DNA of 64,000 nucleotides from Candidatus Magasanikiibacteriota bacterium (GTDB lineage: Bacteria; Patescibacteriota; Patescibacteriia; Magasanikbacterales; UBA922), in the NCBI GenBank assembly GCA_041665025.1, contig JBAYJP010000006.1, forward strand, positions 5,440 to 69,439, given 5' to 3'. Shown here in pieces: positions 3,106 through 57,881 of this stretch (positions are counted from its first letter, which is position 1; every line of letters begins with the position of its first letter). A program made the position numbers and the translations under genes. Below the pieces are notes generated by a model. The model saw nothing but the letters and a program-made list of their open reading frames with translations, was not told the DNA's origin and did not search any database.

Positions 3106-3122
3106 AGTCACCTTCAAACAAA

Positions 3123-7124: not shown

Positions 7125-7221
7125 GTATTATTTTGAAAAATCCGAATAAAAAAATATTGCTTAAACAACAGACAAACTAGAGGATTTGCTAAACAAATTC
7201 CATAGATTCTATATATAAAAT

Positions 7222-13581: not shown

Positions 13582-13585
13582 TTTT

Positions 13586-13660: not shown

Positions 13661-13673
13661 TTTTCCTGTTACT

Positions 13674-20866: not shown

Positions 20867-20966
20867 AGGATCTTCACAACAAGCTAACGAGGTATTACGA
20901 GCTTAATTGAAGAGCTATTTTCTTGGCAAGCCACGAGGTATTGATCCTATAGTTACTCCTCGGCTC

Positions 20967-20993
20967 GGAAAAGCAAAATCGCTTTTGCTTTCC
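20967..20993 (+). terminator. Stable hairpin GGAAAAGCAAAA-TCGC-TTTTGCTTTCC downstream of topA; a possible terminator or part of an ncRNA
   Basis: 9-bp perfect stem read from sequence. A weaker hairpin with a T-tract lies at 21033-21064. Confidence 0.4.
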
Positions 20994-21451
20994 TCTCGCC
21001 TGCGTCGTAAATAAAACAAATTCCACAACAAAAAAACGCCCATTATTACGATGCGCGTTTTTTATGTAGCAGGAGAGTGTGACCTCAATGCCTATGGTGA
21101 TAGTAAGGTTCTCTACCCGCTACGCAAAATAGTATAGCAGGCTGAACAAAAAAAGACAAGCGTAGAGACACTAATTACACTAATTTTGTCGGATTCTACA
21201 GTGTTCTTAATTATACTCAGCGTAATCCTTAAAAAACAGTATAATCAATGTTAAATAAGCTAAAAAAAGAGAAAACCCCAACCTTACGATTGGGGTTTCC
21301 TTTCGGCGTTTAGGCCTCTACCTTATTATCACCAAAAGTATTATATCATAAATATAGCCTTTTGTCAAGGTTTTGGTCGATATACAGCAAATTAACTTGC
21401 AAAATAAGCCAATAAATGATACAAATATAAAGACGTCAAATTAATTATTAT

Positions 21452-34551: not shown

Positions 34552-34640
34552 ATTTTTTTGCTTAAATTACGTACGTATCTTAGCAAAAAAACCTTGGTAA
34601 GACAAGGGTGATAATAGGTTATCCCGAAGACTTAATCTCT

Positions 34641-34802
34641 GCCCCTCTGAGTTTGTTCGAGCAACCCACCCTTAATCCCTCCTTTAAAAAGGGAGGGAAA
34701 GACGATTTAACAAACTCCTCCTCCCTTTTTAAGGGAGGAGGTTGGGAGGTGGGTTGCACGGACAATGCAAGGGAAAATAAAAAGAAGATAGGTTGCTCGA
34801 AC
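34641..34802. repeat. Family A REP-like cluster: two oppositely oriented CTCC(T)CCCTTTTTAAGGGAGG hairpins nested inside a GTTCGAGCAACCCACCC ... GGGTGGGTTGC ... GGTTGCTCGAAC outer inverted repeat
   Basis: Intergenic, between aspS and the M23/LTD gene; read directly from sequence. Confidence 0.65.
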
Positions 34803-34816
34803 TGTTAACCCAAGAC

Positions 34817-40559: not shown

Positions 40560-41300
40560 CTCGTCCGTTTTAAAATTTAGAAACCACGTCGTCAACCAGC
40601 AAGAGTGCGATGTGGATATTGAGAAGTAAATTTACTCCTTAGTACCCACATCACATCTCTCGACCGCGAGAAGTTTTTCGGGGGCACTCGCTCCCGACTC
40701 GCGGTCAAGCCGCAAGCGCCGCGTTTCGCGGTAAGGAAAGGGGGACTCATGTCCCACCTGCGGCTCGCGCTGTTCGCCGCGATCGCGGCGCTGGCACTCG
40801 TCCTCTCGGGCTGCGTCGAGCCCGAGGACGAGACGAATGAGTCTCCCGACACGACGCAACAGCCGTCGGGAGATGTGCAGGCGCCCCTCTGCCAGAAGAA
40901 GGCGGACGGGACCTGCCGCGACGACGTCGCCCCCTCCCCGGGCGACGAGATCGTCGGTGACGACACCGACGGGGAGACGGACGAGGACGTCCTCCAGCCG
41001 AACGGCTGCGAGGCGGTGGAGTGGACCGAGATCACGATCGGCCACGACATCGCCCTCTGCCACGCCGAGAACGGCATGGGCAGCGAGGGCGAGTGCGAGT
41101 TCGCCATGTACGAGCAAGATGGGCAGTGCGTCACCGACTGCATGCCCAACTTCTCGGGGCGACCGACGAACGAGATGGAGGCGGTCCCTGGTGGATTCGC
41201 CTACAACCACCCGTTCCTCGGGCGGGTCATCTGCATCATGCAGTGACCCGACCACACCCGACTGAGCTCGTCCGTGGACTGGGATGCGTCGCGCACCGGT
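40560..41300. other. High-GC island 2, about 740 bp, immediately upstream of the RAYT and 3' of the giant gene
   Basis: Abrupt compositional shift. Contains the inverted repeats GACCGCGAG..CTCGCGGTC and GATGTGG..CCACATC. Confidence 0.6.
40749..41246 (+). CDS. Lipoprotein (165 aa) encoded on high-GC island 2
   Basis: Signal peptide with lipobox LVLSGC; a GGGGG RBS; strongly GC-biased third codon positions. Overlapping ORFs in other frames are GC artefacts. Confidence 0.55.
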   Translation: MSHLRLALFAAIAALALVLSGCVEPEDETNESPDTTQQPSGDVQAPLCQKKADGTCRDDVAPSPGDEIVGDDTDGETDEDVLQPNGCEAVEWTEITIGHDIALCHAENGMGSEGECEFAMYEQDGQCVTDCMPNFSGRPTNEMEAVPGGFAYNHPFLGRVICIMQ

Positions 41301-41333
41301 CCCTAGAGAATAACAAAATGGTATTATCTAGAG

Positions 41334-41366
41334 AAAAAAAATCTCCCAAATTGGGAGATTTTTTTG
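41334..41366. terminator. Bidirectional terminator AAAAAAATCTCCCAA-ATT-GGGAGATTTTTTT directly 3' of the giant gene
   Basis: Perfect 9-bp stem flanked by an A-tract and a T-tract. Confidence 0.75.
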
Positions 41367-41377
41367 TTTTGGAATCT

Positions 41378-44300
41378 TTACGGAATGACAATAATTGCAC
41401 CTTTATATTTTGTAAAATGATAATCATGCATGGTTGAATCATCACATTGATGATCAGTAGTATCATTAAAAAATGCGGTCGGATTGCCATTACCATCTAC
41501 CCCATTACACCACCCCCAATTATCAAGCACCTGAACGCCGGGTTTGAAGATACAGATACCAGTCTCTTCGGTAATTTCACTGCGTTCCATGAGACGAGCG
41601 TATGCTTCGTCTGCGTATGAGAGATTATCACCAAAATATTTTCTCTTTATGGTGTCATTTCTCAAATCACCTACTTCAATATCTGTCGTGTTGCAATAAT
41701 AGGTATGCTCGAATTCAAAATAATTTTCCTGGCACGCACGCGGTGCATCTCCAAAGATTGGATCCTCAATGTTATCATCACAAAAGTAGCCATCCCCAAA
41801 TATCTGGACGCATTCCTCATCTTTTTTACATGTAATGGGAGGCTCGCCCTGAGCCCAGTTACGTTCACGTTCATCTCCTGTACATCTACCTACTGTTTTA
41901 TTACCGTCTGTATCATCACAATAAGGCTTGTGATTCCGATACATGCCCTTTACATCTTTGTTTTGCACGTCCGTGCCGTCGTCCCAATTCACCATCACTC
42001 TGCGTATAGGCATGCGATTATCATCCGCAAACGCAAAGAACCGAGCATTGACCGTAACACTTCCCTGCTGGATAAATGGATCGGGCGTACCTCTTCCGAA
42101 ATCGCTTTTATCTTCATCCCCGTCTTTCCCATCGTCATCATAATCTTTCATTGTATAATTTTTCATGTTAATCGTGATATTGTCTGCTTCTCCTGGAATA
42201 CAATCTTTGTCTCTCCTCGAACATAGGCTCGGGTTGATAGAGAAAATTTGTGGAGGTTTGGTATCGCCAATAAAATCTTGACCTCCTAAATTACTGCTAT
42301 AATCTTCTCCGACATATTCACCTCCTACATAGTCTCCAAGTGTGTCCACTACTGCATCATCTCCAAAAAGATGATTTTGCGACTTAATACTAAAATACTT
42401 CAAAAATAAATCATTCAAACTCAGGTAATACAGATTTGCGTCTTGATATGAAAAATTATCATCCTGTTCTTGTTCTTGCCTATCTACTGCGTGAGTATTT
42501 ATTCCTTTAAGCGTGGCATAACTACCTCCTGTGGTTTTTATTTCTTCACATATAGTTGGAACTCCTCCCAGACGATGGCTATCTGTTTCGTCGCAACTAT
42601 AAGGGAACCCATCGAATACGAGATTGGTGAATGTGTATGAAAGCCAATAAGGATTTCCAATCCCAAGCCATGGATCAAGAGGGCTCGTTCCGCGAAGTGA
42701 GAGAGAAGCATAAGGTTGGAGTTGAGTGGTTTTGAAAATCTGACTAAAAAACCCTGATGACGCTAGATATTCACCGTGTTCCCAGATGCGATCTGTCCAT
42801 GCCTTATTTGTAGTATCTCCAATGTCTCCGCTTTCGTCATATACCTTTACAAATTCATTACAGCTCTCATTCAACTCGACAATAACCGCAAATCGGATGC
42901 CGTGTCCTTCTCCATCATCATTTTCATATCCATTACACCAGCGAGATACATATCCAAGAAATTCACCATTTTTATTAAAGTCAAGGCCAATGGCAATCCA
43001 ACTACCTTCTTTTTTGCCGTCATTTTCATCCTGATGAAGATTAAATTTACATTCAGCCTGCAGAGGATCGGAGTCAGCATTACTGGGTAGACTTACTTCC
43101 TGGCCAGCTATTCCATTCACCAGATCTGTGTTAGGCAAAAACTCAGGCGTTTGCTTTTCAGTATTAGTCAATGGGTAGTATTCATGATATACACCCATAT
43201 ATCTATGCTCTATCTCATTGAGTGTTTGTAAAGCAGGATACCTTTTATACACTTCAAGTATCTTACCGGAAAACTCATATGGACTTGAATCATCATATCC
43301 CTGAAACGACACTAATCCATTTTCATTATCCTTATCCAAAAGATATGTGTACAAGCCTGCGTCCGCAGCACCATCGTCATTAAAAAAATCTATATACCCT
43401 CCATCACTATTACCTCTAATATAATGATATGTTAATGGAACTCTCTCATGAAAGGCAATTTTATCAGGTTCTCTTCCACCTGGGCCTGCAATTCCTCTCA
43501 AACCATTAAAATCAATTCTAAACGCATCTGTCAACAAAGGAACAGGTGCTCCGCCCTCGAGCTTACCTGGATAAGCAACAGGAACAAAATAAATGGCCTT
43601 TATATCTTTTTCTCTTATTTTTTCTTCAAGCGTCGAGCGATATATCTTTGGATAGCTATCGGAAAATGCTAATTTAGTCATCGAAGCTAGTGTCATCGAT
43701 TCTCCTAACACTCTGTCCACGGTTAAAAACGAAGTTTCAACCTTATAATCTATTCCATGCTCTAACTCCATGCCTATAAGAGTCCTGTCTCGAGATGTTT
43801 CATCGCTGTTTTCTATTCCATCGAGGTCACTCATGAAAAAATTCTTGGCATCTGTATCTGGGAGATCTCGAGCTTCTGCAGCCTTATCCCACAAACGCGG
43901 AGGATGCATAAATGTTCCCAGCTCGACAGTATCATACAGCTCAGCATATGTGCCCTCATTTTTTTCAAAAATAGAAGGAGCAAAAATCTCAGGTACGAGT
44001 AATGATGCATCATCTTTGGCCACTTGGCTCTCCAAACTTGTGATATAATCTACACTATTAAAAGCTAGATAGGGATATAATTCTCCTCCTCTTGGATTCA
44101 TGTCCATTCGCAGTACTGTCGCGTTTGTGCCTATTTTCCTCCACGCCCATATATTCATAAGTGCAATAGGAGTGTTTTCTTCATATGGTCCTCGCCATGC
44201 ATCCCTATTGAGATCATCAGCCCAACACATAATATATCTATACATCCCCGTATGACCACAACTTTCTCCGTCATCAAGATTGAGAGGACAAATGCCGCCT

Positions 44301-47300
44301 GCATTTGTTTTAACATTGGGACAATTTTCAGCTAGGCCAGCACTACCCCATGGCAAATTTTCTGAATCCATAAACCGGGTGTAATCTCTATTCATCACTA
44401 TCTGGTGGGCCGGGGGTGCATCTGGATTTGTCTTTAGAGTAAAATTTCCATCTGCAGGTCCTGTTCCTCCGGGCTCAAAACTATATGTACCACCAAAATC
44501 TACTTCTGAATACGCACCTCCGACATTATTACTCAAACTGCAATAATATTCGCCGCCATTGCTTTCACTATCGAGTGTGGGAAAATATCCGGCATCCTGG
44601 TAGGCATTGTAGTTGTCAACAGTAGAAGCAGATGATTGTATAGGAAACCAGGTAAGGCACGCATACTGTTCATCCATACGAACCATGCTCCCGGCTGGCC
44701 CAAGTGGTCGGCTCAGATCATATTCAAGACATAGCCCTTTAAGCCCAAAATATGATGCCTGTTGTTTGATCATACTACATGTTCCTGTGCTACCGCATTC
44801 ATCATTGGTCATACAAGGGAACCCATTTATTGCGCCATCTCCTACACAAACTCCCCCGGTACTTACATGTGCCGGCGTGTCTCGTACTGGCCAATAATCA
44901 ATAGTGCCGTCTTTATATTCTATTTTTCTATATTCACACGAACATTCTTCAACTATAGAGCCATCCTCTTTTACTACTCGTTGACATACATTCGCTTGCG
45001 AATATATTGGTTTTTTTGTCGAGTAATCCCAACGATAATACTGATTGTCCTCCCCTGACGTTTTTTTGTCTCTTTGTTCCGGCTGTTGAGTTAGCGCCAT
45101 TTGAGTAGAAAAAGGACTGCCTTGCTCCGGGTATGCTTTACATATGCCTGTTTCCAAATAAATAGTCATCTCTTCAACTGAATTAACCTCATCGGGAAAC
45201 ATTCCACCGAGTGGATATGTACACCGTTGTTTATAACATCTACCCCCATCATCAAAACCGCACGCATCGCCGTCTTCTTTTTTAAATTTGCTGTCGCTAT
45301 CCACCTCACTGCAGCCTACGTCTGGAAAATCTGCGTCCCCGTCGCCATCTTTATCTGCCATAAAAAATGAATCATTCATCAGATAGGTCAGGTAGACTTC
45401 GTTATCCAAGACAACAGACTTGTAATTTCCAATATTATACTTGTTGAATAAAGAATATCCCGAATATTCAAAACTACCCCAACCTACATTGCGAATGACA
45501 TATTCTTCCTCTGATAACAATGTGTTGTTAAGTGATATGTCTGCCCAACCATCATCGGCGCACGCCCCGTTGCTATTGAGTTTATTACATGTTCCGTAGT
45601 CTTGACATATCCGCTGAGGCACATTATTTTCATCATATACGGTCATCGATGTCCGGCACGCCAACCACTCACTACACTCACGATCACGTTCTACTTTGAG
45701 AAGTACATTGGTATCACGCGTTCCTGCGGTGGCAATAGGAACAAGCGCGTACTTTTTGCTCATACTATCTGCATACGTCAGTACGCTATTATATATCTTG
45801 TTTGGATTTTCAGTCATGTTGAAGAGCACGCATCCTTCTTTTTGGCTCGCTTTGCTATCGCATTCTCCGGTACGTTCAAACAAGCGATCATTATTTATCA
45901 CATAATAAGGTTCACCATCCATATTCCCCGACGTATCTGCTGGATCTATGAGCTCAGTACACCCACTGTATTCTGTTTCGCACATCCCCACATACCCTTG
46001 GTATCCAGGGGTGCCCTGGGACAAAAGTCCATATTCTCCGCTTCCCGAGAGCTGATTTGGATAGCACGCTGTGAGGCCTTTTTTGCATGTTTCGCCTGAA
46101 ACGGTACACTCATTGTCACTGCTACAATAGGTATTAGTACCTCCGCCTGCTTCAGTTTGGCACTGTCCAACGTTATCCATAAACCAGCCACTATATTGTA
46201 TACCACTTATTTCGACATTATCGCGATATGTGCATGATTTAGCACCAATAACAGCCGGATCTTTGAAATAAGTGAGATTATTTCCATTTCTATACTCAGA
46301 ACACCCGACCAAATCTTCACTGCATAATGTCTGGTCATAGTGATCCGGATTATTGAGGACCATAGTATCTGAAAAACTATACGCGGTGTTACTCTGCGCG
46401 TCTGGATTTGTCTGCTGTTGTAATCCTACTTTCTCGCATCCCACATGTTCATCGCTACATACAAATTCAGAACGATGAGTAAGGTAAATCGTATTGGAAT
46501 CAGCAGGAACAACAATAGTAGACGTCACTACATACAAATCGTCAGTATTACCCGTACAAAGACCTACCATGCCAGTTCTCTCTATACACCCACTGGGGAG
46601 ATACACCTTATTGTGAAATTCAGTTGCTCCTGGATCATCGCTATAACTGGGTACGACAACCGCAGTATCTATATAACAACTTGTTTCTCCTTTTCGTATC
46701 GTACAACTATATGTTTCAAAATTAGTAGCGTCAGAATATATTTTTGCCTCGCATTTCGATGCATCACCTGGATACGTAGGACTTGTCGTACCCCGTTTAC
46801 ATAATACATTGTACGCATTCATTTGCATGGCATCTTCACCTGATACAGTATTGTATGTATCTACCATCGCCTTACACCCAACTGCCTCGACACGGCACAA
46901 ACGGTCAAAACCAGACAAAGCAACAGGCTCATTATCTCGTGTCGTGTATGCACGACAGCCCAATGCTTCGCCAGGAAATGCGTCAAGCGGTGTAGAATCG
47001 CATAAAAGTGGCACATCATACCCTTCGCGTGTTTTCCATGAATTTTTTATCAGATAAAGATGGTCATCATTTTCCTGTCCAATACGAACAATGCGGACAT
47101 TATCAATAAAGTACGAGGCAGATTCATTGGTGTCCAAAAACAATGACGCCGTGCCACTCGCCATACCCGTAAACTGTACAGGGCCCAATGTATATTCCTG
47201 CCAATCATTGCCAATAGGCGCTTGTATCGAAGTATTGGTAAGCGGATCAAGCGTAAATGTTCCTTTTGTTGCTCCGTCTTGTCTAAACGAAATGTCCAAT

Positions 47301-50300
47301 GCCTGAGTCTGTCCGCGCGCCCAGAAACTCAACTCATACCATGCACCCGACTGCATACGCTCGGCATTAAATGTATATGAGGCGTCACCGGTAATGCGCA
47401 AAGAATGAAGGCCGACTTGCGTTGCCTCTGCTTCAATAGAAGTATTGCCTGGCCACCCTTCCTTTGCCCGTGTCAACGCATCTGTATCATCCCCATCCGG
47501 TTCAAAATTCATGGAATGAACTTCAATATTATTCCCCTGATTGCCAATATATGAACGGCATCCATTTGCTGTCGCAGGGCATGAATCTGCTTCGCTTTTT
47601 ATGGAATAATATACGCATGCGCCTTGCGCGGGATTACTCGGATCTGTTTGATATGTTCCGCCATTATAACAACGATTGCACACGCTATTCACACTATCCC
47701 ATGTACCACCTTTCTGCGCACATAACGTATTTTTTGCAACCCCTCCGACAGACCCTGATCCGGATAAATATTCATCCTCGTACAAATTTGAAATGCTTTT
47801 ACGCAATGGACGGCAGTCCAAAGACACTGACACGGTATCATTTTTCAAACGATAATATACGCCTCCGGAAGCATCATAATACGCGCGGCAGTCAGGACTT
47901 GTATTAGAAGCATATGGATTTTGCAAATGCAGATTATATTGTGCTGCATTACAAATTGCATAATTATTTTCCAAGGAAGTTTTACTATCATCGGCGTATG
48001 CCGGAGAGTTACTCGCAAACTCAGCAACCGCACCACTTGCCAGACCAAGTCCTGAAATATAAAGTGCCTGAGCCGCGTCAATTTTTGCAAGCGTGTGTTT
48101 TTGCAATATAAATCCCTGACTTGCAGAACCTTCCCACGTATAAAATACTTTTGCATTTTCACCTTCGGGTCGTTCACAATATTTCAAATTACTATAATAT
48201 TCTAGTGACTCGCCTCCGCCGGTGAGCGCATCAATATTGGTAAATTCATCACACCCTACATACTGAGCTGCGCACGTCTGACCGCCTGAAGGACCTGTAG
48301 GAATAAAATACATGGGAAATTGAGATTGTTCGAAATTGGATTCTTCTTGTTTAAACGTGTCATATCCAATACACTGCTCATTGCATAAATTTTCTGTGGT
48401 TGCAATGCCCGGAATTTCTATACCCCCTTGCGCCGGAGTATACCCTTTGCATCCCACTTCGTCTTGTACACACACTTGCGCAAAATTACTGCAACTTTCC
48501 GGTTTATCTTCAAATCCAACAAGATCCGCGCGAGTCTGCGGCCAATCTATGGCAGGCGTACCAATATTTTTATCATAACAACCCAGATACTCTGGAGCTT
48601 TTTTCAATCGAATTGATTCTCCATTCAAAGCATCTTTGAAAACACTACATCCTTCTGCGTTACCGGGACATGAAGCGTAGGAAGATAATTTGTCATTAAA
48701 ATAAAGCATTTGCTCTCTGCCAAGAAGTTTATCCTCGATATTTACTTGGCCACTATTCTTCCATGTACCATCTTCATTTTGTTCACTACTATATGCACGG
48801 CATCCTTTTGATTCCACACTGCATGCGCCATAGTCGAGGGTGCGTGAAAGATACGATGATACAGAGCCCGAGACTGAATTGACATATGTTTTGCATGTGT
48901 TGTAATACGCCGGACAACTGTCTCCCGGCATATGCCATACATTTTTTTCTTTTGTACAATATCCATACGAAATGCACTGGCCTTTGTCGTCTTCTTTGAG
49001 ACATGTTGAAAAATCTACGCACTCCTGCGTTCGCAGGGCTGTACCTTCTTGTTGCAATTGGGGACCCCACACGCGCGCTTCACAGCGAGCCTCAGGAGCT
49101 TTGATAATCCAATTGGGATCAATGAGGTGACAATATGGGAAAGCAGCACTTGGTCTTCCTGAGGGATCGCACTCGGTAAATCCGTCTACGACCTTCTTTA
49201 GTGTCACGGGGTTATCTGGATCAGATTTAAGTGCAGCAATTTCAAACCCAAGCGGTAAAATACGTGCTTTTCTAAGTTTTTGAATATTTGAATAACAATA
49301 TGCCTGACTATAGCAATAGGGCAAATTCGTATTATCTACATCACGACCTGGCGGTATGAGTAGCCAATTTTCATGAAGCTGTCCACTCTTCATTGCTTCA
49401 TCTATGGTAAGAGGATCCCCTGTTTGTGCCAAATTGACTGCTTCTACAAGCTTACCATCCATAACACAATTATTGAGTCCTGGCGCCGGCGTTTGCGGAC
49501 ATGCACTGAATTCAGTTACCAAATCATAGGTGTCGAGGCTGCGCTGAGGAACCGTTGCAATAAGATATGAAAAAGCTTTTTCTGCCGCCTGACGATTGTA
49601 ACTAATATTTGAAGCAAAAAAATCAGTAACTCCTGAGGATTCGCTATCACCACCTGAAGGAAATAATCCCCCATCCATTATATTTTGTAAAAGAGAAGAC
49701 ACGAGCGTATTAGCAAAGACTGACAGCGCCATGGGCAAAATCTGTAAAGATCCTGAACCATAGATACCTGCGATTTGACCGGCCGTCATGTCTCCTTGAT
49801 TTTTTGCAGTCACTGACTTTGTTTCTTCTTGGATTACTTGGGCTGGCGTTCGAATCTTACCTGAGATAATGTCAGCAACTGGTTTGAAGCCATTTCCCTC
49901 TTGACGCGCTTGAGTTGCGTCTATCTGCGATTGGGTCACCACACGATCCAACTTCCCCATCAGTCCAAGCGCCGCTCCAAAATCTGAGTCTGAAACACTT
50001 AGAGAGGCAGTGAAACGCTCGGAAATAGCGTCCTTACTTCCGTACATATCATCAACTTGCTCCCAATTACTCGTGAATTCAGACCAATTACAACGAGGAG
50101 CTGGACCGCCTTCGTTTCCATATTCTGAATCATATATTCTCTGCAATCCAACCTGTAGCCCCACTTGCACCCGAAGATCCGGTGGTTTACACAAATCAAG
50201 TCCGAGAGGCTCCCCAAACTGCTGAATGGCTCCCGCAGCACTATCCAATGCAGTATTTCCAAGATATGAACCAAAACCATCTTGAAATGCGAGTGCGCTT

Positions 50301-50599
50301 TGACCCTTCCCACCGGAGGCAACATACTTGGCAGAATCATAAGCCAACTTACGCATAAAATATGATGCGCCATTGACCAGAGCGCCGAGAGCTGCACCCA
50401 CAAGAGTATTTTGAACTTGTTCCCACGTCCATTTCCCGGAAAAAGCTGCAGTAATCGCGGCATCCATCTGCGCGTGTGCTCTTTGTGGCAACGCAAAAAA
50501 ACCGAGCAATTGCACTCCCAAAAATAATGATATAACAAAAGAGATAGACAATTTACGGGAACGATTGGAGGAAAACCACATACATCTTTTAAGTAACAA
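41378..50599 (-). CDS. Giant (3073 aa) secreted Cys-rich protein with a signal peptide and a galactose-binding/CBM-like domain among many Cys-rich modules
   Basis: Uninterrupted 9.2-kb ORF. The N-terminal hydrophobic segment FVISLFLGVQLLGFFALPQRAHA is signal-like. The CBM-like segment is (...WYELSFWARGQ...FIDNVRIV). Cysteines are frequent and patterned. Confidence 0.75.
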   Translation of the reverse strand: MLLKRCMWFSSNRSRKLSISFVISLFLGVQLLGFFALPQRAHAQMDAAITAAFSGKWTWEQVQNTLVGAALGALVNGASYFMRKLAYDSAKYVASGGKGQSALAFQDGFGSYLGNTALDSAAGAIQQFGEPLGLDLCKPPDLRVQVGLQVGLQRIYDSEYGNEGGPAPRCNWSEFTSNWEQVDDMYGSKDAISERFTASLSVSDSDFGAALGLMGKLDRVVTQSQIDATQARQEGNGFKPVADIISGKIRTPAQVIQEETKSVTAKNQGDMTAGQIAGIYGSGSLQILPMALSVFANTLVSSLLQNIMDGGLFPSGGDSESSGVTDFFASNISYNRQAAEKAFSYLIATVPQRSLDTYDLVTEFSACPQTPAPGLNNCVMDGKLVEAVNLAQTGDPLTIDEAMKSGQLHENWLLIPPGRDVDNTNLPYCYSQAYCYSNIQKLRKARILPLGFEIAALKSDPDNPVTLKKVVDGFTECDPSGRPSAAFPYCHLIDPNWIIKAPEARCEARVWGPQLQQEGTALRTQECVDFSTCLKEDDKGQCISYGYCTKEKNVWHMPGDSCPAYYNTCKTYVNSVSGSVSSYLSRTLDYGACSVESKGCRAYSSEQNEDGTWKNSGQVNIEDKLLGREQMLYFNDKLSSYASCPGNAEGCSVFKDALNGESIRLKKAPEYLGCYDKNIGTPAIDWPQTRADLVGFEDKPESCSNFAQVCVQDEVGCKGYTPAQGGIEIPGIATTENLCNEQCIGYDTFKQEESNFEQSQFPMYFIPTGPSGGQTCAAQYVGCDEFTNIDALTGGGESLEYYSNLKYCERPEGENAKVFYTWEGSASQGFILQKHTLAKIDAAQALYISGLGLASGAVAEFASNSPAYADDSKTSLENNYAICNAAQYNLHLQNPYASNTSPDCRAYYDASGGVYYRLKNDTVSVSLDCRPLRKSISNLYEDEYLSGSGSVGGVAKNTLCAQKGGTWDSVNSVCNRCYNGGTYQTDPSNPAQGACVYYSIKSEADSCPATANGCRSYIGNQGNNIEVHSMNFEPDGDDTDALTRAKEGWPGNTSIEAEATQVGLHSLRITGDASYTFNAERMQSGAWYELSFWARGQTQALDISFRQDGATKGTFTLDPLTNTSIQAPIGNDWQEYTLGPVQFTGMASGTASLFLDTNESASYFIDNVRIVRIGQENDDHLYLIKNSWKTREGYDVPLLCDSTPLDAFPGEALGCRAYTTRDNEPVALSGFDRLCRVEAVGCKAMVDTYNTVSGEDAMQMNAYNVLCKRGTTSPTYPGDASKCEAKIYSDATNFETYSCTIRKGETSCYIDTAVVVPSYSDDPGATEFHNKVYLPSGCIERTGMVGLCTGNTDDLYVVTSTIVVPADSNTIYLTHRSEFVCSDEHVGCEKVGLQQQTNPDAQSNTAYSFSDTMVLNNPDHYDQTLCSEDLVGCSEYRNGNNLTYFKDPAVIGAKSCTYRDNVEISGIQYSGWFMDNVGQCQTEAGGGTNTYCSSDNECTVSGETCKKGLTACYPNQLSGSGEYGLLSQGTPGYQGYVGMCETEYSGCTELIDPADTSGNMDGEPYYVINNDRLFERTGECDSKASQKEGCVLFNMTENPNKIYNSVLTYADSMSKKYALVPIATAGTRDTNVLLKVERDRECSEWLACRTSMTVYDENNVPQRICQDYGTCNKLNSNGACADDGWADISLNNTLLSEEEYVIRNVGWGSFEYSGYSLFNKYNIGNYKSVVLDNEVYLTYLMNDSFFMADKDGDGDADFPDVGCSEVDSDSKFKKEDGDACGFDDGGRCYKQRCTYPLGGMFPDEVNSVEEMTIYLETGICKAYPEQGSPFSTQMALTQQPEQRDKKTSGEDNQYYRWDYSTKKPIYSQANVCQRVVKEDGSIVEECSCEYRKIEYKDGTIDYWPVRDTPAHVSTGGVCVGDGAINGFPCMTNDECGSTGTCSMIKQQASYFGLKGLCLEYDLSRPLGPAGSMVRMDEQYACLTWFPIQSSASTVDNYNAYQDAGYFPTLDSESNGGEYYCSLSNNVGGAYSEVDFGGTYSFEPGGTGPADGNFTLKTNPDAPPAHQIVMNRDYTRFMDSENLPWGSAGLAENCPNVKTNAGGICPLNLDDGESCGHTGMYRYIMCWADDLNRDAWRGPYEENTPIALMNIWAWRKIGTNATVLRMDMNPRGGELYPYLAFNSVDYITSLESQVAKDDASLLVPEIFAPSIFEKNEGTYAELYDTVELGTFMHPPRLWDKAAEARDLPDTDAKNFFMSDLDGIENSDETSRDRTLIGMELEHGIDYKVETSFLTVDRVLGESMTLASMTKLAFSDSYPKIYRSTLEEKIREKDIKAIYFVPVAYPGKLEGGAPVPLLTDAFRIDFNGLRGIAGPGGREPDKIAFHERVPLTYHYIRGNSDGGYIDFFNDDGAADAGLYTYLLDKDNENGLVSFQGYDDSSPYEFSGKILEVYKRYPALQTLNEIEHRYMGVYHEYYPLTNTEKQTPEFLPNTDLVNGIAGQEVSLPSNADSDPLQAECKFNLHQDENDGKKEGSWIAIGLDFNKNGEFLGYVSRWCNGYENDDGEGHGIRFAVIVELNESCNEFVKVYDESGDIGDTTNKAWTDRIWEHGEYLASSGFFSQIFKTTQLQPYASLSLRGTSPLDPWLGIGNPYWLSYTFTNLVFDGFPYSCDETDSHRLGGVPTICEEIKTTGGSYATLKGINTHAVDRQEQEQDDNFSYQDANLYYLSLNDLFLKYFSIKSQNHLFGDDAVVDTLGDYVGGEYVGEDYSSNLGGQDFIGDTKPPQIFSINPSLCSRRDKDCIPGEADNITINMKNYTMKDYDDDGKDGDEDKSDFGRGTPDPFIQQGSVTVNARFFAFADDNRMPIRRVMVNWDDGTDVQNKDVKGMYRNHKPYCDDTDGNKTVGRCTGDERERNWAQGEPPITCKKDEECVQIFGDGYFCDDNIEDPIFGDAPRACQENYFEFEHTYYCNTTDIEVGDLRNDTIKRKYFGDNLSYADEAYARLMERSEITEETGICIFKPGVQVLDNWGWCNGVDGNGNPTAFFNDTTDHQCDDSTMHDYHFTKYKGAIIVIP

Positions 50600-51533: not shown

Positions 51534-52388
51534 TTATGTGAGTTTTTTGGCCAAAGTTATCCACTGTTGCACATTGAGTTCCTGCGCCCGTGCTTTTTCA
51601 TTGTCTATTATCTCTTTTAAGAAGCTTTCCATTTGTAATTTATCTCTTTTCAACCCATCTGCTAAGTTTTTTGCCAACTGTTTTCGTTTGTTGGCAAATC
51701 CAATTCTTGCAATTTCAAAAAATCTCTGATTAAAATCTCTGTTCCCTGTTCCTTGTTCCCTAATCAATATATGTACCACAGCTGAATCAACCGCGGGCAT
51801 TGGCCAAAAATTACCTTTAGGAACTTTGCATACAATTTTTGGCTCACCATAGTATTGGACTGACAAGGACAACAAACTCATATCTCCTGGTTTGGCAACT
51901 ATTCTTTCAGCAACTTCTTTTTGAACCATGACCGTAATGCTTTCTGGTTTGTGTTCAAGCTCGAGCAAAACGCGCAGGATATGTGAGGTGATTTGATAAG
52001 GTAAATTAGCAATCACTTTATAATTTTTGATACGTGATACGTGATACGTGATGAGTGATAAAACATCTCCCCAAATAATTTCAATATCTCCTGTCTCATT
52101 GTCTAATCTTGTAATCTTAAAATCTTTTAATCTTTCGTCCCAATACTGTTCCAACCGTCGTTCAATCTCAAACGCTTTCACATGTGCACCTCTCTGTGCT
52201 AATTCAAACGTCAGCACGCCAAAACCTGGTCCTATTTCAATAACTGTGTCCCCTTTCCTGACATCCGCTGCTTCAATCATTTTGTGAATAGGCGCATCTG
52301 AAATCAAAAAATTCTGGCCATACTTTTTGGAAGGGATAAGACCACATTCTTTGCAGAGTTGTTTCAGTTTAGTTGGCGTGAGTTGCAT
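51534..52388 (-). CDS. rsmA: 16S rRNA (adenine1518/1519-N6) dimethyltransferase RsmA/KsgA
   Basis: YGQNFL...IEIGPGFG...NLPYQITS motifs. It contains an in-frame GTGATAC x3 tandem at 52028-52060. Confidence 0.9.
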   Translation of the reverse strand: MQLTPTKLKQLCKECGLIPSKKYGQNFLISDAPIHKMIEAADVRKGDTVIEIGPGFGVLTFELAQRGAHVKAFEIERRLEQYWDERLKDFKITRLDNETGDIEIIWGDVLSLITYHVSRIKNYKVIANLPYQITSHILRVLLELEHKPESITVMVQKEVAERIVAKPGDMSLLSLSVQYYGEPKIVCKVPKGNFWPMPAVDSAVVHILIREQGTGNRDFNQRFFEIARIGFANKRKQLAKNLADGLKRDKLQMESFLKEIIDNEKARAQELNVQQWITLAKKLT

Positions 52389-53707: not shown

Positions 53708-54328
53708 TTACAGATGTTCAATTATCACGCTGCCTTGCCTCACTATTTCTATGTTTCCATTTTTTATTGCAATAATAGTGGATGGCTTTTGGACAGGCAG
53801 TTCCCCCGCGTCGATACATATGTCAGGCTGTACTAATTCGTGTTCAAATGTTTTTATAACATCAATAGGTGTATACGCATTATCTCCTCCACTGATATTT
53901 GCCGAGGTAGAAACAAGTGGTGCTCTTAGCTCACTGCAAATTTTTTGTGCAATTGGATGAGAGGTTATTCTAAATGCAACTGTTCCTTCACTACTTACAA
54001 TTCCTTTGGGTAAAATTACACCCTGTTTTATGGGCACGACAACTGTCAGAGGCCCTGGCCAATATTTTTTTGCGACCATATCGAGCGTTTGATTCCACTC
54101 GACATATCCCTTCATCATTTCAATATCTGAAGTAACAACAAGTAGAGATTTTGAGACTGGCCTTTGTTTTATGTTGTATATATGTTCAACGGCCGTTACA
54201 TGTGTTGCATCGCAACCCAATCCATAACAGGTTTCTGTGGGATAGATAATTGTCTTGCCATCATGCAAAGAGTCTACAATACTCTGAATGTTAAGTTGTG
54301 AAGATTTAATAATCTGCATATAGTTCAT
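53708..54328 (-). CDS. tsaC: L-threonylcarbamoyladenylate synthase (TsaC/YrdC/Sua5 family)
   Basis: IYPTETCYGLGCDA signature. The start is trimmed to the Met at 54328/54319, because the longer ORF to 54358 translates the family-E palindrome. Confidence 0.8.
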   Translation of the reverse strand: MNYMQIIKSSQLNIQSIVDSLHDGKTIIYPTETCYGLGCDATHVTAVEHIYNIKQRPVSKSLLVVTSDIEMMKGYVEWNQTLDMVAKKYWPGPLTVVVPIKQGVILPKGIVSSEGTVAFRITSHPIAQKICSELRAPLVSTSANISGGDNAYTPIDVIKTFEHELVQPDICIDAGELPVQKPSTIIAIKNGNIEIVRQGSVIIEHL

Positions 54329-54390
54329 AGCCAATAGTTCATAGCCAACAAACACCAAAACTATTGGCTAATGGCTGTTGGCTACGAACT
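54321..54390. repeat. Family E palindrome: TAGTTCATAGCCAATAGTTCATAGCCAAC ... CTATTGGCTAATGGCTGTTGGCTACGAACT
   Basis: Related to 10931-10994; it overlaps the apparent 5' end of tsaC. Confidence 0.55.
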
Positions 54391-54536
54391 AAAGATATTG
54401 TAGCTAAAATAAGCTAAATTTGCAATTATTCAACCTATTTTTCTGGGATACTTGATTTTTATCTAAATTTAGACTATAATATGTCCATTATTATTTATTC
54501 ACCATTCATAATTCAAAATTCATAATTCTACACTAT

Positions 54537-54755
54537 ATGGGACTCCCCGCAAAACGAAGAACATCACGATCACGCGACGACCGTCGTTCACATTTCGCAC
54601 TCAAAACTACTACTGTCACAAAATGCGTATCTTGTGGTGCGAATGTATTACCACACCGTGCATGCGCGGCATGTGGCACATACAAGGGCAAAAAAATAGT
54701 AGGAACTGAAAAACGAGCCACTCGTCTTGCACGCAGAACGAAAAAAATTAGCTAA
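54537..54755 (+). CDS. rpmF: 50S ribosomal protein L32
   Basis: MGLPAKRRTSRSRDDRRSHFAL..., with a Cys pair and a CAACG zinc-ribbon-like region. Confidence 0.8.
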   Translation: MGLPAKRRTSRSRDDRRSHFALKTTTVTKCVSCGANVLPHRACAACGTYKGKKIVGTEKRATRLARRTKKIS

Positions 54756-54830
54756 GATAAAAATGTACGAAATTCGAAAACTGCGAAATATCCGAAATTC
54801 GTTTTTTTCGTACCTTTCGTAGTTTTCGAA
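54755..54830 (+). repeat. Hairpin element F of about 75 nt: GTACGAAATTCGAAAACTGCGAAA ... TTTCGTAGTTTTCGAATTTCGTAC, a 24-bp stem with one G-U pair
   Basis: A near-identical copy lies at 56241-56312, so the pair flanks nusB and rnc. Confidence 0.65.
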
Positions 54831-54846
54831 TTTCGTACATAAAAAT

Positions 54847-55317
54847 ATGTCTAAACGCCATCTCGCCCGTTCTATTGTCATGCAATCATTGTATCAGTGG
54901 GATTTTCGCGGCAACCCAACAGCTGCTATTCCTGCTATTATTGATGAAATCATGGAAGAGTTTGGCGTAGGACTTGAAGATACAAAAGAATACGTAGAAA
55001 AAACAGTTAACGGTGTCATTGACCACAAAGACGAAATAGACAAACTCATGGCAGAGTATGCCCCCCATTGGCCGCTTGCACAGATGACGCTTATTGATCG
55101 AAATATTTTGCGCATTGGAATATATGAACTTTCATATAATACAGAAGAAATCCCTCCGCGTGTGGCTATCAATGAAGCAATCGAGCTTGCCAAAACATAT
55201 GGCGGTCCAAGCTCTGGAAAATTCGTAAACGGAATATTGGGAGCGATGTACAAAAAAATTGAAGGGAATATAAACAATAAAACAAAGTCCAGTCAATTAA
55301 ATAAAAAAACAGAATAA
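54847..55317 (+). CDS. nusB: Transcription antitermination factor NusB
   Basis: [18 protein letters not shown]-terminus and an all-helical NusB fold. Confidence 0.85.
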
Positions 55318-55323
55318 AATTAT

Positions 55324-55436
55324 AACTCAAAAATCAAATCTCAAAACTCAAATAAAAAACTTAAAACTAAAACCGCTCTGAATATTCATTTTTGAGTTTA
55401 GAGTTTATGTTTTGACTTTTGACCTTTGAGTTTTGA
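55324..55436. repeat. Long AT-rich hairpin built from CAAAACT/AGTTTTG-type repeats (family G)
   Basis: AACTCAAAAATCAAATCTCAAAACTCAAA ... TTTGAGTTTAGAGTTTATGTTTTGACTTTTGACCTTTGAGTTTTG. A second copy of the family lies at 56399-56490. Confidence 0.5.
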
Positions 55437-55475
55437 AATTCTGCATCCCATTTTGGATTTCGAAATTCAATATAT

Positions 55476-56237
55476 ATGTCTATACCATTCTACGAAGAAA
55501 AAAACTTCACAAAAATAGAGGAAAAAATTGGTGTATCATTCAACAACAAAGATATTTTGGTCCAAGCCCTTGTTCACCGATCATACCTCAACGAACACCG
55601 AGACTTTCCTTTGGCTCATAACGAACGTCTGGAATTCTTGGGAGATGCGGTGCTTGAACTGATCGTAACAGAATTCCTCTTTGAAAATTACTTAAATCCC
55701 GAAGGAGAACTTACCAATTGGCGTGCGGCTTTGGTAAATGGCACCAACTGCGCATTAGTATCGCATGAAATAGGACTTGATGAATTTTTGTTCTTGAGTC
55801 ATGGGGAATCAAAAGATGCAAATACCAAGGCGCGGGACTATATACTTGCCAATGCGCTTGAAGCACTTATTGGCGCGATTTATATAGATCAAGGCTGGGA
55901 CATTACGGAGCAATTTGTTATACGCTGGGTAGTAACCAAACTTCCCGAGGTACTCGAACAAGGACTCTGGATGGATCCAAAATCTCGGTTCCAGGAAGCG
56001 GCCCAAGAGATTGTCGGCGTCACACCGACATACAAAGTAGTAAAAGAAGAAGGGCCTGATCATGCAAAACAATTTGTCATTGCGGTATATCTCGATAAAG
56101 AACAAATAGCAACCGGTGAAGGGACAAGTAAGCAAGAAGCACAGACTTCCGCTGCAGAAGCAGGGCTCAAGGCGAAGGGATGGAAAGGACCAAAAATACA
56201 GATACTTACACGAAAACCAGAAGATCCAATTGGATAA
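55476..56237 (+). CDS. rnc: Ribonuclease III
   Basis: RNase III signature ERLEFLGDAVLEL plus a C-terminal dsRBD. Confidence 0.9.
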   Translation: MSIPFYEEKNFTKIEEKIGVSFNNKDILVQALVHRSYLNEHRDFPLAHNERLEFLGDAVLELIVTEFLFENYLNPEGELTNWRAALVNGTNCALVSHEIGLDEFLFLSHGESKDANTKARDYILANALEALIGAIYIDQGWDITEQFVIRWVVTKLPEVLEQGLWMDPKSRFQEAAQEIVGVTPTYKVVKEEGPDHAKQFVIAVYLDKEQIATGEGTSKQEAQTSAAEAGLKAKGWKGPKIQILTRKPEDPIG

Positions 56238-56240
56238 CGT

Positions 56241-56312
56241 GTACGAAATACGAAAACTGCGAAATATTCGAAATTCGTTTTTCGTACCTTTCGTAGTTTT
56301 CGTATTTCGTAT
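56241..56312 (+). repeat. Second copy of hairpin element F, between rnc and tRNA-Lys
   Basis: GTACGAAATACGAAAACTGCGAAATATTCGAAATTCGTTTTTCGTACCTTTCGTAGTTTTCGTATTTCGTATAT. Confidence 0.65.
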
Positions 56313-56318
56313 ATAGAT

Positions 56319-56394
56319 GGGTCGCTAGCTCAGTTGGTAGAGCAGTTGCCTCTTAAGCAAACGGTCCAGGGTTCGATCCCCTGGCGACCCACCA
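56319..56394 (+). tRNA. tRNA-Lys (anticodon CTT) with an encoded CCA
   Basis: GGGTCGC acceptor, GCTCAGTTGGTAGAGC D-arm, anticodon loop CTCTTAA, T-arm CAGGG TTCGATC CCCTG, then ACCA. Confidence 0.85.
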
Positions 56395-56495
56395 ATATAA
56401 AACTCAAAACACAAAATTCAAAATGCAAAACTGAGATAATGCATACATAAAAATAAGTTTTGAATTTTGAGCTTTGACTTTTGAGTTTTTTTATT

Positions 56496-56567
56496 GCCTC
56501 TGTCGTTCAACGGATAGGACAACAGCCTTCGAAGCTGTATATGCGGGTTCGATTCCTGCCGGGGGCA
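56496..56567 (+). tRNA. tRNA-Arg (anticodon TCG)
   Basis: Acceptor GCCTCTG/CGGGGGC with two G-U pairs; D-arm identical to the other Arg tRNA; anticodon stem ACAGC/GCTGT with loop CTTCGAA; T-arm GCGGG TTCGATT CCTGC. Confidence 0.7.
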
Positions 56568-56630
56568 CGCGTAAAAAATTTCGAATTTTAAATTTCGAAT
56601 TTCGAAACAATCAATTTAGAATTCAATCCT

Positions 56631-56701
56631 GGGCTTATAGTACAGCGGTAGTACGGGGCATTCGCATTGCTCAGACCCGGGTTCGATTCCCGGTAAGTCC
56701 A
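56631..56701 (+). tRNA. tRNA-Ala (anticodon CGC)
   Basis: A G3-U70 pair in the acceptor stem (GGGCTTA/TAAGTCC); anticodon loop TTCGCAT; T-arm CCGGG TTCGATT CCCGG. Confidence 0.8.
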
Positions 56702-56787
56702 CTGTATTCGCACTTGCCCGCAGTAGCTTTCTTGACCGCCATAGCTTTAGCGAAGGCGGTAGTGAAGGTGGGTTAATAATAACGCCT

Positions 56788-57822
56788 ATGAAAACGCTAA
56801 TGCTGAGTAGCAATAACATCAAATCTATCATTAAACAGGTAGGCATTGATGAATTCATGGATGCCTCAATAAATAACATAGAAAATTATTTTTTATACCT
56901 AGGAAAAAAATACGAAAGAAGACAACGAATCGGCTTTTTCTTTAGGAATGGAAGAACTGTCGAAAGTATGCCTTGCAGAAAAATTGGATCTAAAATTCTT
57001 TTCAAGACAGTAAACTTTCATGAGACAAATTGCTTAAGAGGACTTCCGACTGTTATGTCCTCTACAATACTATGCGATGAAAAAACAGGATTTCAAGAAG
57101 TTATCACTGACTCAACTCTTCTTACGTATATTAGAACGGGAGCTGCCACTGCAATTGCCACTAAATATTTAGCACGTAAAGAAAGTTCGAAAGTTGGGGT
57201 AATAGGTGCAGGCAGCGTAGGCCAAGCATGTCTACATGCTATATCGAGGATCTACAATCTCACAAAAATCTATATATGGGACACAGATAACAACGCACTG
57301 GAAACATTTCGAAAAAGAATGGAAAAAATTATAAAAAAACCAATTGAAATTGAACACCCTAAAAAATTTGTTCCCGATATCGATATCTTGACAACAACTA
57401 CTTATGGTAATAAAAAAATTGTAAAAAACTTATGGGTCCCAAAAGGAATTCATATAAATGCAATAGGTGGTGATGCCCCAGGAAAACAGGAATTGGATGG
57501 GAATATCTTAAAAAGAGCCAAAATTGTTGTTGATTACAAAGAACAAGCTATTACGGAAGGAGAAATTAATGTGCCAATTACTAAAGGTATTATCTCTATT
57601 GAGGATGTTCACGCTGAACTCTCGGATGTTGTAAAAAAGAAAAAAAATAGTAGAAAAAATTCCTCGGAAATCACTTTATTTGATTCAACCGGCGATCCTC
57701 TTGAGGATCTTGCAATTATAGAACTTCTTCTAAAATATAATAAAAGATTTAATCTAGGAAAGAAAACAAATTTTATATACAGCCCATCACACACCAAGGA
57801 TCCCTACAAAGACCTCCGTTGA
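56788..57822 (+). CDS. Ornithine cyclodeaminase / mu-crystallin family protein
   Basis: LLTYIRTGAATAIATKYLARKESSKVGVIGAGSVGQ, the OCD-family Rossmann signature. Confidence 0.6.
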   Translation: MKTLMLSSNNIKSIIKQVGIDEFMDASINNIENYFLYLGKKYERRQRIGFFFRNGRTVESMPCRKIGSKILFKTVNFHETNCLRGLPTVMSSTILCDEKTGFQEVITDSTLLTYIRTGAATAIATKYLARKESSKVGVIGAGSVGQACLHAISRIYNLTKIYIWDTDNNALETFRKRMEKIIKKPIEIEHPKKFVPDIDILTTTTYGNKKIVKNLWVPKGIHINAIGGDAPGKQELDGNILKRAKIVVDYKEQAITEGEINVPITKGIISIEDVHAELSDVVKKKKNSRKNSSEITLFDSTGDPLEDLAIIELLLKYNKRFNLGKKTNFIYSPSHTKDPYKDLR

Positions 57823-57881
57823 CACAATAAAACTCTCCGTTATCCCGGAGAGTTTTATAATCTGTAATATCTGTCGGCAAA

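Follow-up and report, generated by a model that had tools for sequence, protein, structure and literature searches.

The twin hairpins on either side of the nusB–rnc genes, designated A1 and A2, are members of a widespread class of palindromes, made of unit arrays, that is found in the intercistronic spacers of Candidatus Magasanikbacteria and other Patescibacteria. Their position beside rnc is most likely coincidental. On balance, we consider it rather likely that they are gene-less palindromes resembling intervening sequences or MITEs, which are co-transcribed with the operon and plausibly cut by RNase III, with the proximity of rnc being incidental.

A first-pass annotation of this DNA described near-identical twin hairpins at the rpmF/nusB and rnc/tRNA-Lys junctions. 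Both are real and their arms are 95% identical; the flanking genes are those it named, although A1 had been placed at 54755–54830, which is off by approximately 8–10 nt (Table 1). Each hairpin consists of 26 contiguous pairs (24 had been proposed), one of them the G-U pair already noticed, followed by a 4 × 4 internal loop, 5 bp, and a U-rich loop of 8 nt in A1 and 6 nt in A2. The two copies differ in loop length, in the closing pairs, in a single internal-loop base, and at one position where a T-A pair is replaced by a compensated A-T pair. Fold prediction, as had been suggested, gave stable stem-loops for both, and none of 200 dinucleotide shuffles, from which their z values in Table 1 are derived, reached the stability of the native sequence. 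When the 1563-nt RNA is folded as a whole, its minimum-energy structure retains the local hairpins. Four TACGAAA units, irregularly spaced at 7–9 nt, make up each arm, and the two arms are inverted. Neither hairpin encloses an ORF. A1 begins 7 nt past the rpmF stop codon and ends 6 nt ahead of the nusB ATG; A2 begins 1 nt past the rnc stop codon and ends 4 nt ahead of tRNA-Lys. In the 64-kb window, i.e., the whole stretch of DNA analyzed, the 26-nt arm motif has four matches against 0.00 expected, and A1 and A2 are the only two copies of the TACGAAA family, both flanking nusB–rnc.

Table 1. Features of the rpmF–nusB–rnc–tRNA locus (window positions; dG in kcal/mol).
Feature	Position	Strand	Details
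Sigma-70-like promoter TTGATT-17-TATAAT, upstream of rpmF	54452–54480	+	10/12 matches
Solo array of 7-nt units TTCATAA/TTCAAAA, rpmF leader	54492–54534	+	no inverted partner
rpmF (ribosomal protein L32)	54537–54755	+	PF01783, E = 4e-16
Hairpin A1, TACGAAA-family palindrome	54763–54840	.	5' arm 54763–54797, 3' arm 54806–54840; dG -41.6, z -9.9
nusB	54847–55317	+	PF01029, E = 7e-36
Hairpin B1, CTCAAAA-family palindrome, directly upstream of rnc	55320–55440	.	dG -30.8, z -6.2
rnc (RNase III)	55476–56237	+	Pfam; ERLEFLGD catalytic signature and dsRBD
Hairpin A2, TACGAAA-family palindrome	56239–56314	.	5' arm 56239–56273, 3' arm 56280–56314; dG -40.7, z -9.1
tRNA-Lys (CTT)	56319–56394	+	
Hairpin B2, CTCAAAA-family palindrome, between tRNA-Lys and tRNA-Arg	56399–56489	.	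dG -29.1, z -6.1
tRNA-Arg (TCG)	56496–56568	+	
Short TTTCGAA unit array, between tRNA-Arg and tRNA-Ala	56576–56607	.	weak hairpin only, z -1.5
tRNA-Ala (CGC)	56631–56702	+	
First downstream terminator-like hairpin	57827–57858	.	short stem, G+C-rich core, flanking A run and U run

The only good plus-strand match to a sigma-70-like promoter in the scanned region (54300–56900) is the one before rpmF. No terminator-like hairpin occurs between this promoter and the one listed last in Table 1, which lies at a convergent junction after an ornithine-cyclodeaminase-family gene (spacer 57823–57881). Thus, as far as these signals indicate, A1 and A2 are probably co-transcribed in a single rpmF–nusB–rnc–tRNA precursor, which would need to be cut. 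Elements of the A and B families alternate along it, in the order A1–nusB–B1–rnc–A2–tRNA–B2–tRNA. There is no rRNA in the 64-kb window, and A1 and A2 lie between protein and tRNA genes. In an Rfam scan, only the tRNAs reached the gathering threshold; the sub-threshold matches of the hairpins were to plant miRNA-precursor models, with 21–28 bits against thresholds of 83–211.

The class extends far beyond this locus. The window alone contains approximately 16 unit-array palindromes and four solo arrays from at least eight sequence families, built from short tandem units of 7–9 bases and filling intergenic gaps. The TACGAAA arm motif was found on 81 metagenome contigs and in three GTDB-representative MAGs, two labelled Patescibacteria and one labelled Gammaproteobacteria. 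An earlier pattern for the genome collection was rejected because its ten hits were mostly single chance hits in unrelated phyla, and a search of IMG/VR for viral carriers gave no matches. The stems of the family comprise 27–42 pairs. At about half of the loci, only a single arm is present and no hairpin is possible, some of these cases being accounted for by contig ends or a distant partner arm. In some elements, all four units have switched together to TGCGAAA. The 5' arms start 2–14 nt past stop codons and the 3' arms end 0–11 nt before starts; elements are also present at convergent and divergent junctions and before tRNAs (A2 and B2), and one member lies in-frame inside a coding gene (locus L025). 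The ten neighboring genes tested with Pfam encode S19, L2, GT4, a DOT1-like methyltransferase, a response regulator, GatA, an NTP-transferase, RuvX, ScpB, and AdoHcyase. A literature search found neither the motif nor any description of such palindromes in Patescibacteria.

Some relatives of A1 and A2 carry genes. Genes for GxxExxY (TIGR04256) and four-helix-bundle (TIGR02436/PF05635) proteins, two small families typical of 23S rRNA intervening sequences, sit between arms of this kind, and in nine of the ten genes for which both flanks were available, inverted arms of 19–46 nt lie directly at the ORF ends. Within the TACGAAA family itself, one element carries a four-helix-bundle gene (L013) and three carry GxxExxY (L010, L068, and L091). 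The B family is connected in the same manner: a four-helix-bundle gene on the same contig, 9.8 kb downstream of B1 (TIGR02436; L001, 19821–20189), lies between B-family arms, and the 16-mer TAACTCAAAAATCAAA is common to its flanking arm and the 5' arm of B1. When ORFs were ranked blindly by the complementarity of their flanks, three further PF05635 genes emerged from the ten high-ranking ORFs tested. Because RNAduplex energies of ORF flanks have a noisy background (median -26.7 kcal/mol), ungapped inverted repeats were relied on instead. Of the neighbor relations of these genes, 18 of 19 are co-oriented. The proteins they encode are GxxExxY or four-helix-bundle proteins and include no known transposase; the GxxExxY family is assigned to the PD-(D/E)XK nuclease superfamily.

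Signs of selection on the RNA were sought across the family. Among 31 hairpins with co-directional neighbors, folding is better on the sense strand in 17 and on the antisense strand in 14 (Wilcoxon p = 0.6). G-U was also compared with A-C pairing in these hairpins, again without bias (48 versus 42 G-U pairs). Given this lack of strand bias throughout the family, the conserved G-U pair of A1 and A2 is not a strand signal. Covariation was rejected as an indication of a selected structure: some GC/AT double changes occur, but A-C mismatches are many, and the identity between the arms of one element (23.5 of 26) barely exceeds that between elements (23.1 of 26; permutation p = 0.02). The arms keep near a consensus and do not co-vary, a pattern that selection for an RNA structure explains no better than a recent spread or a sequence-specific recognition does. 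With regard to mobility, the elements resemble MITEs and Correia elements in that they end in inverted repeats and are dispersed in multiple copies. No consistent direct repeat indicative of target-site duplication was present in the flanks of 27 hairpins, with TAAAAA flanking A1 only, and no transposase was found with these elements.

Several known systems share parts of this architecture. One parallel is with the 23S rRNA intervening sequences of Coxiella, Leptospira, and Salmonella, which are excised by RNase III and likewise have terminal inverted repeats and a stem of approximately 26–28 bp. [quoted passage not shown] The loop of the 23S elements is either empty or occupied by an S23p/PF05635 ORF, and members of the present family carry PF05635 or GxxExxY. 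Unlike them, the elements described here occupy spacers between cistrons or ahead of tRNAs instead of 23S helices, and A1 and A2 have no ORF. Correia/nemis of Neisseria, ERIC, RUP, and the RPE of Rickettsia are also short, intergenic, palindromic repeats that are co-transcribed and fold into hairpins, and the in-frame member at L025 recalls the Rickettsia RPE. Transcripts of Correia elements are RNase III substrates. In contrast to Correia elements and MITEs, neither target-site duplication nor a cognate transposase is seen here, each arm consists of short units in tandem, and each family has few copies but each genome many families.

The heptamer repeats of Xanthomonas (GGGAATC) and Nostoc/Calothrix mostly have four units per array and are intergenic, near the 3' end of the upstream gene; they lie mostly between co-directional genes, either solo or as convergent inverted pairs (PMC4692102). 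The elements described here share these features. However, those repeats are G-rich and have been discussed as quadruplex formers, and that study did not link them to ORFs of the intervening-sequence type (PMC4692102). Finally, long stems whose cleavage separates the cistrons of a polycistronic RNA also occur in the E. coli rnc leader and at the intercistronic RNase III sites of phage T7; for the present hairpins, cleavage is an inference.

According to the preferred reading, the palindromic repeat would be present at this locus as two copies that lack a gene, A1 and A2, the gene-less form being a miniature of the gene-carrying members, and the class would behave like selfish or near-neutral DNA of presumably selfish origin. 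Each copy is predicted to fold locally into a 26 + 5-bp stem-loop inside the rpmF–nusB–rnc–tRNA precursor. RNase III would then most likely cleave the stems as generic junction hairpins, as it does intervening-sequence stems. This would sever the precursor at the rpmF/nusB and rnc/tRNA junctions, and the following start codon or the 5' end of the tRNA would be freed of the hairpin that adjoins it. The early suggestion that the hairpins are RNase III substrates is therefore kept as plausible, since the stem, at 26 bp, has sufficient length for a bacterial RNase III and the genome has an intact rnc gene, but the rnc-specific role attached to it is not supported. A further step is possible, although we hold it only tentatively: unit-array palindromes might serve as vehicles or landing pads for the selfish genes of the intervening-sequence type (four-helix-bundle TIGR02436 and GxxExxY) across the operons of Patescibacteria and not in rRNA alone, with excision of the stem from the RNA by host RNase III giving tolerance of insertion anywhere in a transcript, A1 and A2 as miniature derivatives, and the GxxExxY protein perhaps acting as a structure-specific mover.

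A translational function is unlikely. In such a gate, the hairpin would bury the region before the next start and be opened either by stem cleavage or by a ribosome that terminates 1–14 nt upstream, making translation of the downstream gene dependent on that of the upstream one. The placement of the arms just past stops and just before starts suits this idea, A1 included. So does a genome essentially without Shine-Dalgarno sites (2 of 45 starts), in which initiation needs an open leader. However, tight spacing is trivial where a short spacer is taken up by an element, elements of this kind also precede tRNAs and occupy convergent and divergent junctions, solo arms are incapable of gating, and there is no strand bias.

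We also doubt that the arm itself is the functional unit, with the four TACGAAA units forming part of a promoter or an array to which a conserved protein binds sequence-specifically, whether in DNA or in RNA. The frequency of solo arms would be in keeping with this proposal, as would a consensus that is conserved across genomes more than the arm-to-arm pairing, the joint switch of the four units to TGCGAAA, and a solo 3' arm at the same rpmF/nusB site in L064, where NusB is only 61% identical. Against it, the closer relatives L094–L097 have no TACGAAA arm at that site, the unit spacing is irregular, and at least eight unrelated unit families in one 64-kb window would need many cognate proteins. 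Several solo arms, moreover, border four-helix-bundle or GxxExxY genes or pseudogenes. A promoter within the 3' arm was rejected, as neither A1 nor A2 showed a sigma-70-like match in its 3' arm in the scan of 54300–56900.

The first-pass annotation had proposed that the pair deliberately brackets rnc and serves its autoregulation or feedback control, i.e., that A1 and A2 are dedicated RNase III feedback sites of the E. coli rnc-leader type. Some observations are in line with this: both TACGAAA copies of the window flank nusB–rnc, a duplex is possible between the 3' arm of A1 and the 5' arm of A2 (-38.3 kcal/mol), and some hairpin is present in the nusB–rnc spacer of all six rnc loci examined (dG -18 to -35). 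Yet the annotation had itself named scatter over dozens of unrelated loci as evidence against the link, and this is what was found: the family lies beside unrelated genes at more than 80 loci, and rnc is present at only one of the 91 arm-bearing loci. Nor is the bracketing conserved. In five orthologous loci of other Magasanikbacteria (L064, L094, L095, L096, and L097), synteny is kept, but the two A sites contain different palindromes, decayed remnants, or nothing. The position also differs from that of an rncO-type leader, as A1 precedes nusB, A2 follows rnc, and the hairpin in the rnc leader, B1, is of another family. As in E. coli, one hairpin does lie in that leader, but the A hairpins are a dispersed repeat and not a dedicated site, without sequence or positional conservation at rnc. 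In addition, B1 and B2 are likewise twinned in the same stretch, which makes local copying the simpler account of the twins. A long-range A1–A2 stem closing nusB–rnc was rejected as energetically inferior, since it sacrifices two local hairpins totalling -82 kcal/mol. Autoregulation of rnc is not supported and is largely refuted by the distribution of the family; we regard it as very improbable.

Factor-independent terminators or attenuators between genes are just as hard to credit: the elements are long, stable hairpins in intergenic spacers, but no plus-strand U-tract follows A1 or A2, the stem is AU-rich and the terminator scan makes no call, short stems with a G+C-rich core and U/A runs exist elsewhere in the genome (7086–7135 and 57827–57858), a canonical terminator follows the 5' arm at L032, L086, and L089, and elements lie 4–6 nt before starts or tRNAs and even within a ribosomal-protein operon, at L2/S19, which is difficult to reconcile with a strong-terminator role.

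A1 and A2 are not an rnc feedback device and are of little importance, and twins of this kind near any gene should not be taken during annotation as evidence of gene-specific regulation. The class to which they belong may, in turn, explain how long perfect hairpins are tolerated at the operon junctions of the compact, Shine-Dalgarno-poor genomes of Patescibacteria. It ties two widespread orphan families, four-helix-bundle/S23p and GxxExxY, to a recognizable DNA vehicle. If the tentative vehicle reading is true, these two orphan families would belong, together with 23S intervening sequences and the heptamer repeat pairs of bacteria, to one kind of mobile element.

Two near-identical TACGAAA-unit hairpins, A1 and A2, flank nusB-rnc in this Candidatus Magasanikbacteria genome, as the first-pass annotation had noticed, and their arms are 95% identical. 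Both hairpins are real, but the start and end of the first copy had been placed about 8–10 nt too low. As expected from that reading, the predicted stems are long and include a G-U pair: the fold of each RNA comprises 26 contiguous pairs (one G-U), a 4 × 4 internal loop, five further pairs, and a U-rich loop. The ΔG values are −41.6 (A1) and −40.7 kcal/mol (A2), with z-scores of −9.9 and −9.1, and no shuffled sequence was equally stable. The arm motif occurs four times in the window against 0.00 expected, and the hairpins matched no Rfam family. A1 starts 7 nt past the rpmF stop codon and ends 6 nt ahead of the nusB ATG; A2 starts 1 nt past that of rnc and is separated from tRNA-Lys by 4 nt. 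The gene order L32, NusB, RNase III, tRNA-Lys, tRNA-Arg, and tRNA-Ala was confirmed with Pfam and ARAGORN. The RNase III gene encodes a dsRBD together with the ERLEFLGD signature, and it has matches among solved structures of bacterial RNase III.

Since one promoter precedes rpmF, the sole convincing sigma-70-like match in a scan of 54300–56900, and the first terminator-like hairpin lies downstream at 57827, rpmF, nusB, rnc, and the three tRNAs probably form one precursor. A palindrome, i.e., two inverted arms, is located at every junction of this presumed precursor, in the order A1, nusB, B1, rnc, A2, tRNA-Lys, B2, tRNA-Arg, where B1 and B2 are CTCAAAA-unit hairpins. The rnc leader hairpin is B1, not A1 or A2. 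A long-range A1–A2 stem (−38 kcal/mol) is outcompeted by the two local hairpins, which total −82 kcal/mol; the local hairpins are retained in the minimum-energy fold of the full 1563-nt RNA.

The pair had been proposed to serve rnc processing or autoregulation. However, the element is scattered at unrelated loci, and L32/NusB/RNase III tblastn matches were found in only 1 of 91, the orthologous locus L064. Scatter of this kind is what the first-pass annotation had itself named as refuting its proposal. The 23-nt arm pattern retrieved 81 metagenome contigs, mostly from groundwater and lake assemblies, and was absent from viral contigs. A related pattern gave ten hits among GTDB representatives, mostly by chance, with family members in three MAGs (L007 and L011, labelled Patescibacteria, and L010, labelled Gammaproteobacteria). 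Roughly half of the family loci are compact hairpins (27–42 pairs, ΔG −30 to −55) and half single arms, a few having arms 115–480 nt apart; 5′ arms lie 2–14 nt past stop codons, and 3′ arms end 0–11 nt ahead of start codons. Ten Pfam-tested neighbours encode S19, L2, a GT4 glycosyltransferase, a DOT1-like methyltransferase, a response regulator, GatA, an NTP-transferase, RuvX, ScpB, and AdoHcyase. Twin TACGAAA hairpins also occur in L018 and L074, 1.2–3.5 kb apart, around one or two unrelated genes (in L018, a DOT1-like methyltransferase and a small ORF); therefore, twin bracketing recurs without rnc.

Nor is the bracketing conserved across five related loci that keep the order rpmF-nusB-rnc-tRNA-Lys-tRNA-Arg. 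L064 (RNase III identity 68%) has a solo 3′ arm only in the rpmF-nusB spacer and no element after rnc; L094 (82%) has decayed remnants at both positions; L095 (80%) has an unrelated palindrome and then an 8-nt spacer; L096 (77%) has nothing and then a G+C-rich multi-hairpin spacer outside the TACGAAA family; and L097 (77%) has nothing except a small 27-nt hairpin, followed after rnc by a TACGAAT-type hairpin. Some hairpin occupies the nusB/rnc spacer in every locus, its family varying. Beyond the TACGAAT-type hairpin of L097 lies a fragment like the 5′ part of tRNA-Lys (GGGTTGTTAGCTCAGTTG), with the intact tRNA-Lys about 40 nt further on, which points to an earlier insertion or duplication event at this tRNA.

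Folding of every intergenic spacer of the window, together with Tandem Repeats Finder, revealed about 16 palindromes with arms of 7–9-nt unit arrays, and four solo arrays. They fall into at least eight sequence families (TTCTAAT, ATAGCCA, ATCACAT, CTAAGT, GTTATAA, TTTAGAA/TTTCGAA, CTCAAAA, and TACGAAA), several of which occur as local pairs; terminator-type hairpins are separate. Unit arrays of 7–8 nt also lie in-frame within coding genes, which recalls the palindromic elements of Rickettsia. In L025, the reading frame of a 182-aa ORF runs through a full TACGAAA arm, with the partner arm just past the stop codon; by eye, without a family search, we take this ORF to resemble a PduO-type adenosyltransferase.

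Other features of the window are listed below. A G+C-rich family of palindromes distinct from those above (CCTCCCTTTTTAAGGGAGG and related sequences) lies in strongly structured non-coding stretches, two of them long; no Rfam match was found. Two further intergenic regions of very stable predicted structure, with no Rfam family above threshold, could be unannotated RNAs. A Shine-Dalgarno-like core within 20 nt of the start precedes 2 of 45 genes, and most ATGs follow A/T-rich sequence, often ...TAT ATG; the genome almost lacks Shine-Dalgarno sites, and translation initiation is largely Shine-Dalgarno-independent. A giant ORF without a Pfam family on record is matched in L094 and L095 by a similarly giant ORF in the corresponding place.

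Coordinates of the features (window numbering unless a locus is named)
Feature	Position	Remarks
A1	54763–54840	between rpmF and nusB
A2	56239–56314	between rnc and tRNA-Lys
B1	55320–55440	CTCAAAA units; rnc leader
B2	56399–56489	between tRNA-Lys and tRNA-Arg
Promoter	54452–54480	TTGATT-17-TATAAT, + strand, upstream of rpmF
Terminator-like hairpin	57827–57858	short stem, G+C-rich core, flanking A and U runs
Terminator-type hairpin	7086–7135	G+C-rich stem core, flanking U/A runs
Array in KsgA/RsmA gene (51534–52388, − strand)	52028–52060	TGATACG x4.7, reads ...ITYHVSRI...
Arrays in ORF 4522–6735	5099–5131, 5637–5667	
Array in ORF 13674–15050	14350–14437	
In-frame TACGAAA arm	L025 1242–1272	within 182-aa ORF
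Twin hairpins	L018 117–194, 1377–1448	
Twin hairpins	L074 3453–3529, 6963–7069	
tRNA-Lys-like fragment	L097 10855–10897	
CCTCCCTTTTTAAGGGAGG-type palindromes	2988–3102, 13582–13673, 34678–34738	
Stretch with CCTCCCTTTTTAAGGGAGG-type palindromes	2974–3443	470 nt, ΔG −178
Stretch with CCTCCCTTTTTAAGGGAGG-type palindromes	34552–34816	265 nt, ΔG −105
Structured intergenic region	20867–21451	585 nt, ΔG −140 to −171
Structured intergenic region	41144–41377	234 nt, ΔG −95 to −101
Giant ORF	41378–50581	− strand, ~3070 aa
Four-helix-bundle gene and arms	L001 19785–20250	window-equivalent ~65260–65725

Arms of these families also enclose genes. TACGAAA arms surround a GxxExxY gene in L010 and L068 (TIGR04256, E = 3e-24 and 7e-21). 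On the same contig as the window (L001), 1.3 kb past its end, a four-helix-bundle gene (TIGR02436/PF05635, E = 3e-26) lies between CTCAAAA-family arms that have a 16-mer in common with B1; it is wedged between two neighbours of the same orientation, an MgtE-like and an Nramp gene. Local HMMs identified eight four-helix-bundle and four to five GxxExxY genes in the DNA examined. In 9 of 10 with both flanks available, inverted unit-array arms of 19–46 nt lie directly at the ORF ends, and 18 of 19 relations to neighbouring genes are co-oriented. When all ORFs were ranked blindly by flank complementarity, tests of ten high-ranking ones yielded three more PF05635 genes. Several apparently solo arms (L013, L091, L010:808) lie next to a gene of these types or to a pseudogene.

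To date, related arrangements have been reported elsewhere. The Coxiella 23S intervening sequence carries a four-helix-bundle (S23p) ORF in a 28-bp terminal-inverted-repeat stem with tandem heptamers and is cut mid-stem by RNase III in vitro; according to the same study, the enzyme also acts on the intervening sequences of Salmonella, Leptospira, and Alphaproteobacteria (PMC4990558). Candidate Phyla Radiation rRNA genes contain short uncharacterised insertions and 23S_rRNA_IVP ORFs (10.1101/2024.02.27.582315), and in cyanobacteria 23S_rRNA_IVP genes lie sandwiched between the genes of operons (PMC3936711). Intergenic heptamer arrays of Xanthomonas and Nostoc, mostly of four units and with 70–75 inverted pairs, have no known function (PMC4692102). 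The literature search returned nothing with the TACGAAA motif or on these palindromes in Patescibacteria.

Collectively, A1 and A2 are best read as gene-less representatives of a class of unit-array palindromes, resembling intervening sequences and MITEs, that has colonised the intercistronic spacers of these bacteria. Local copying is the most likely origin of the twins and likewise of the B1/B2 pair; no target-site duplication was found. Arm-to-arm covariation is weak, the arms staying close to consensus, and across 31 hairpins neither G-U pairs nor folding energy favoured the sense strand. Autoregulation specific to rnc is not supported. It is plausible that A1 and A2 RNAs are RNase III substrates, and they may act as junction-processing sites; such a role, if true, would apply to any such palindrome in any operon.
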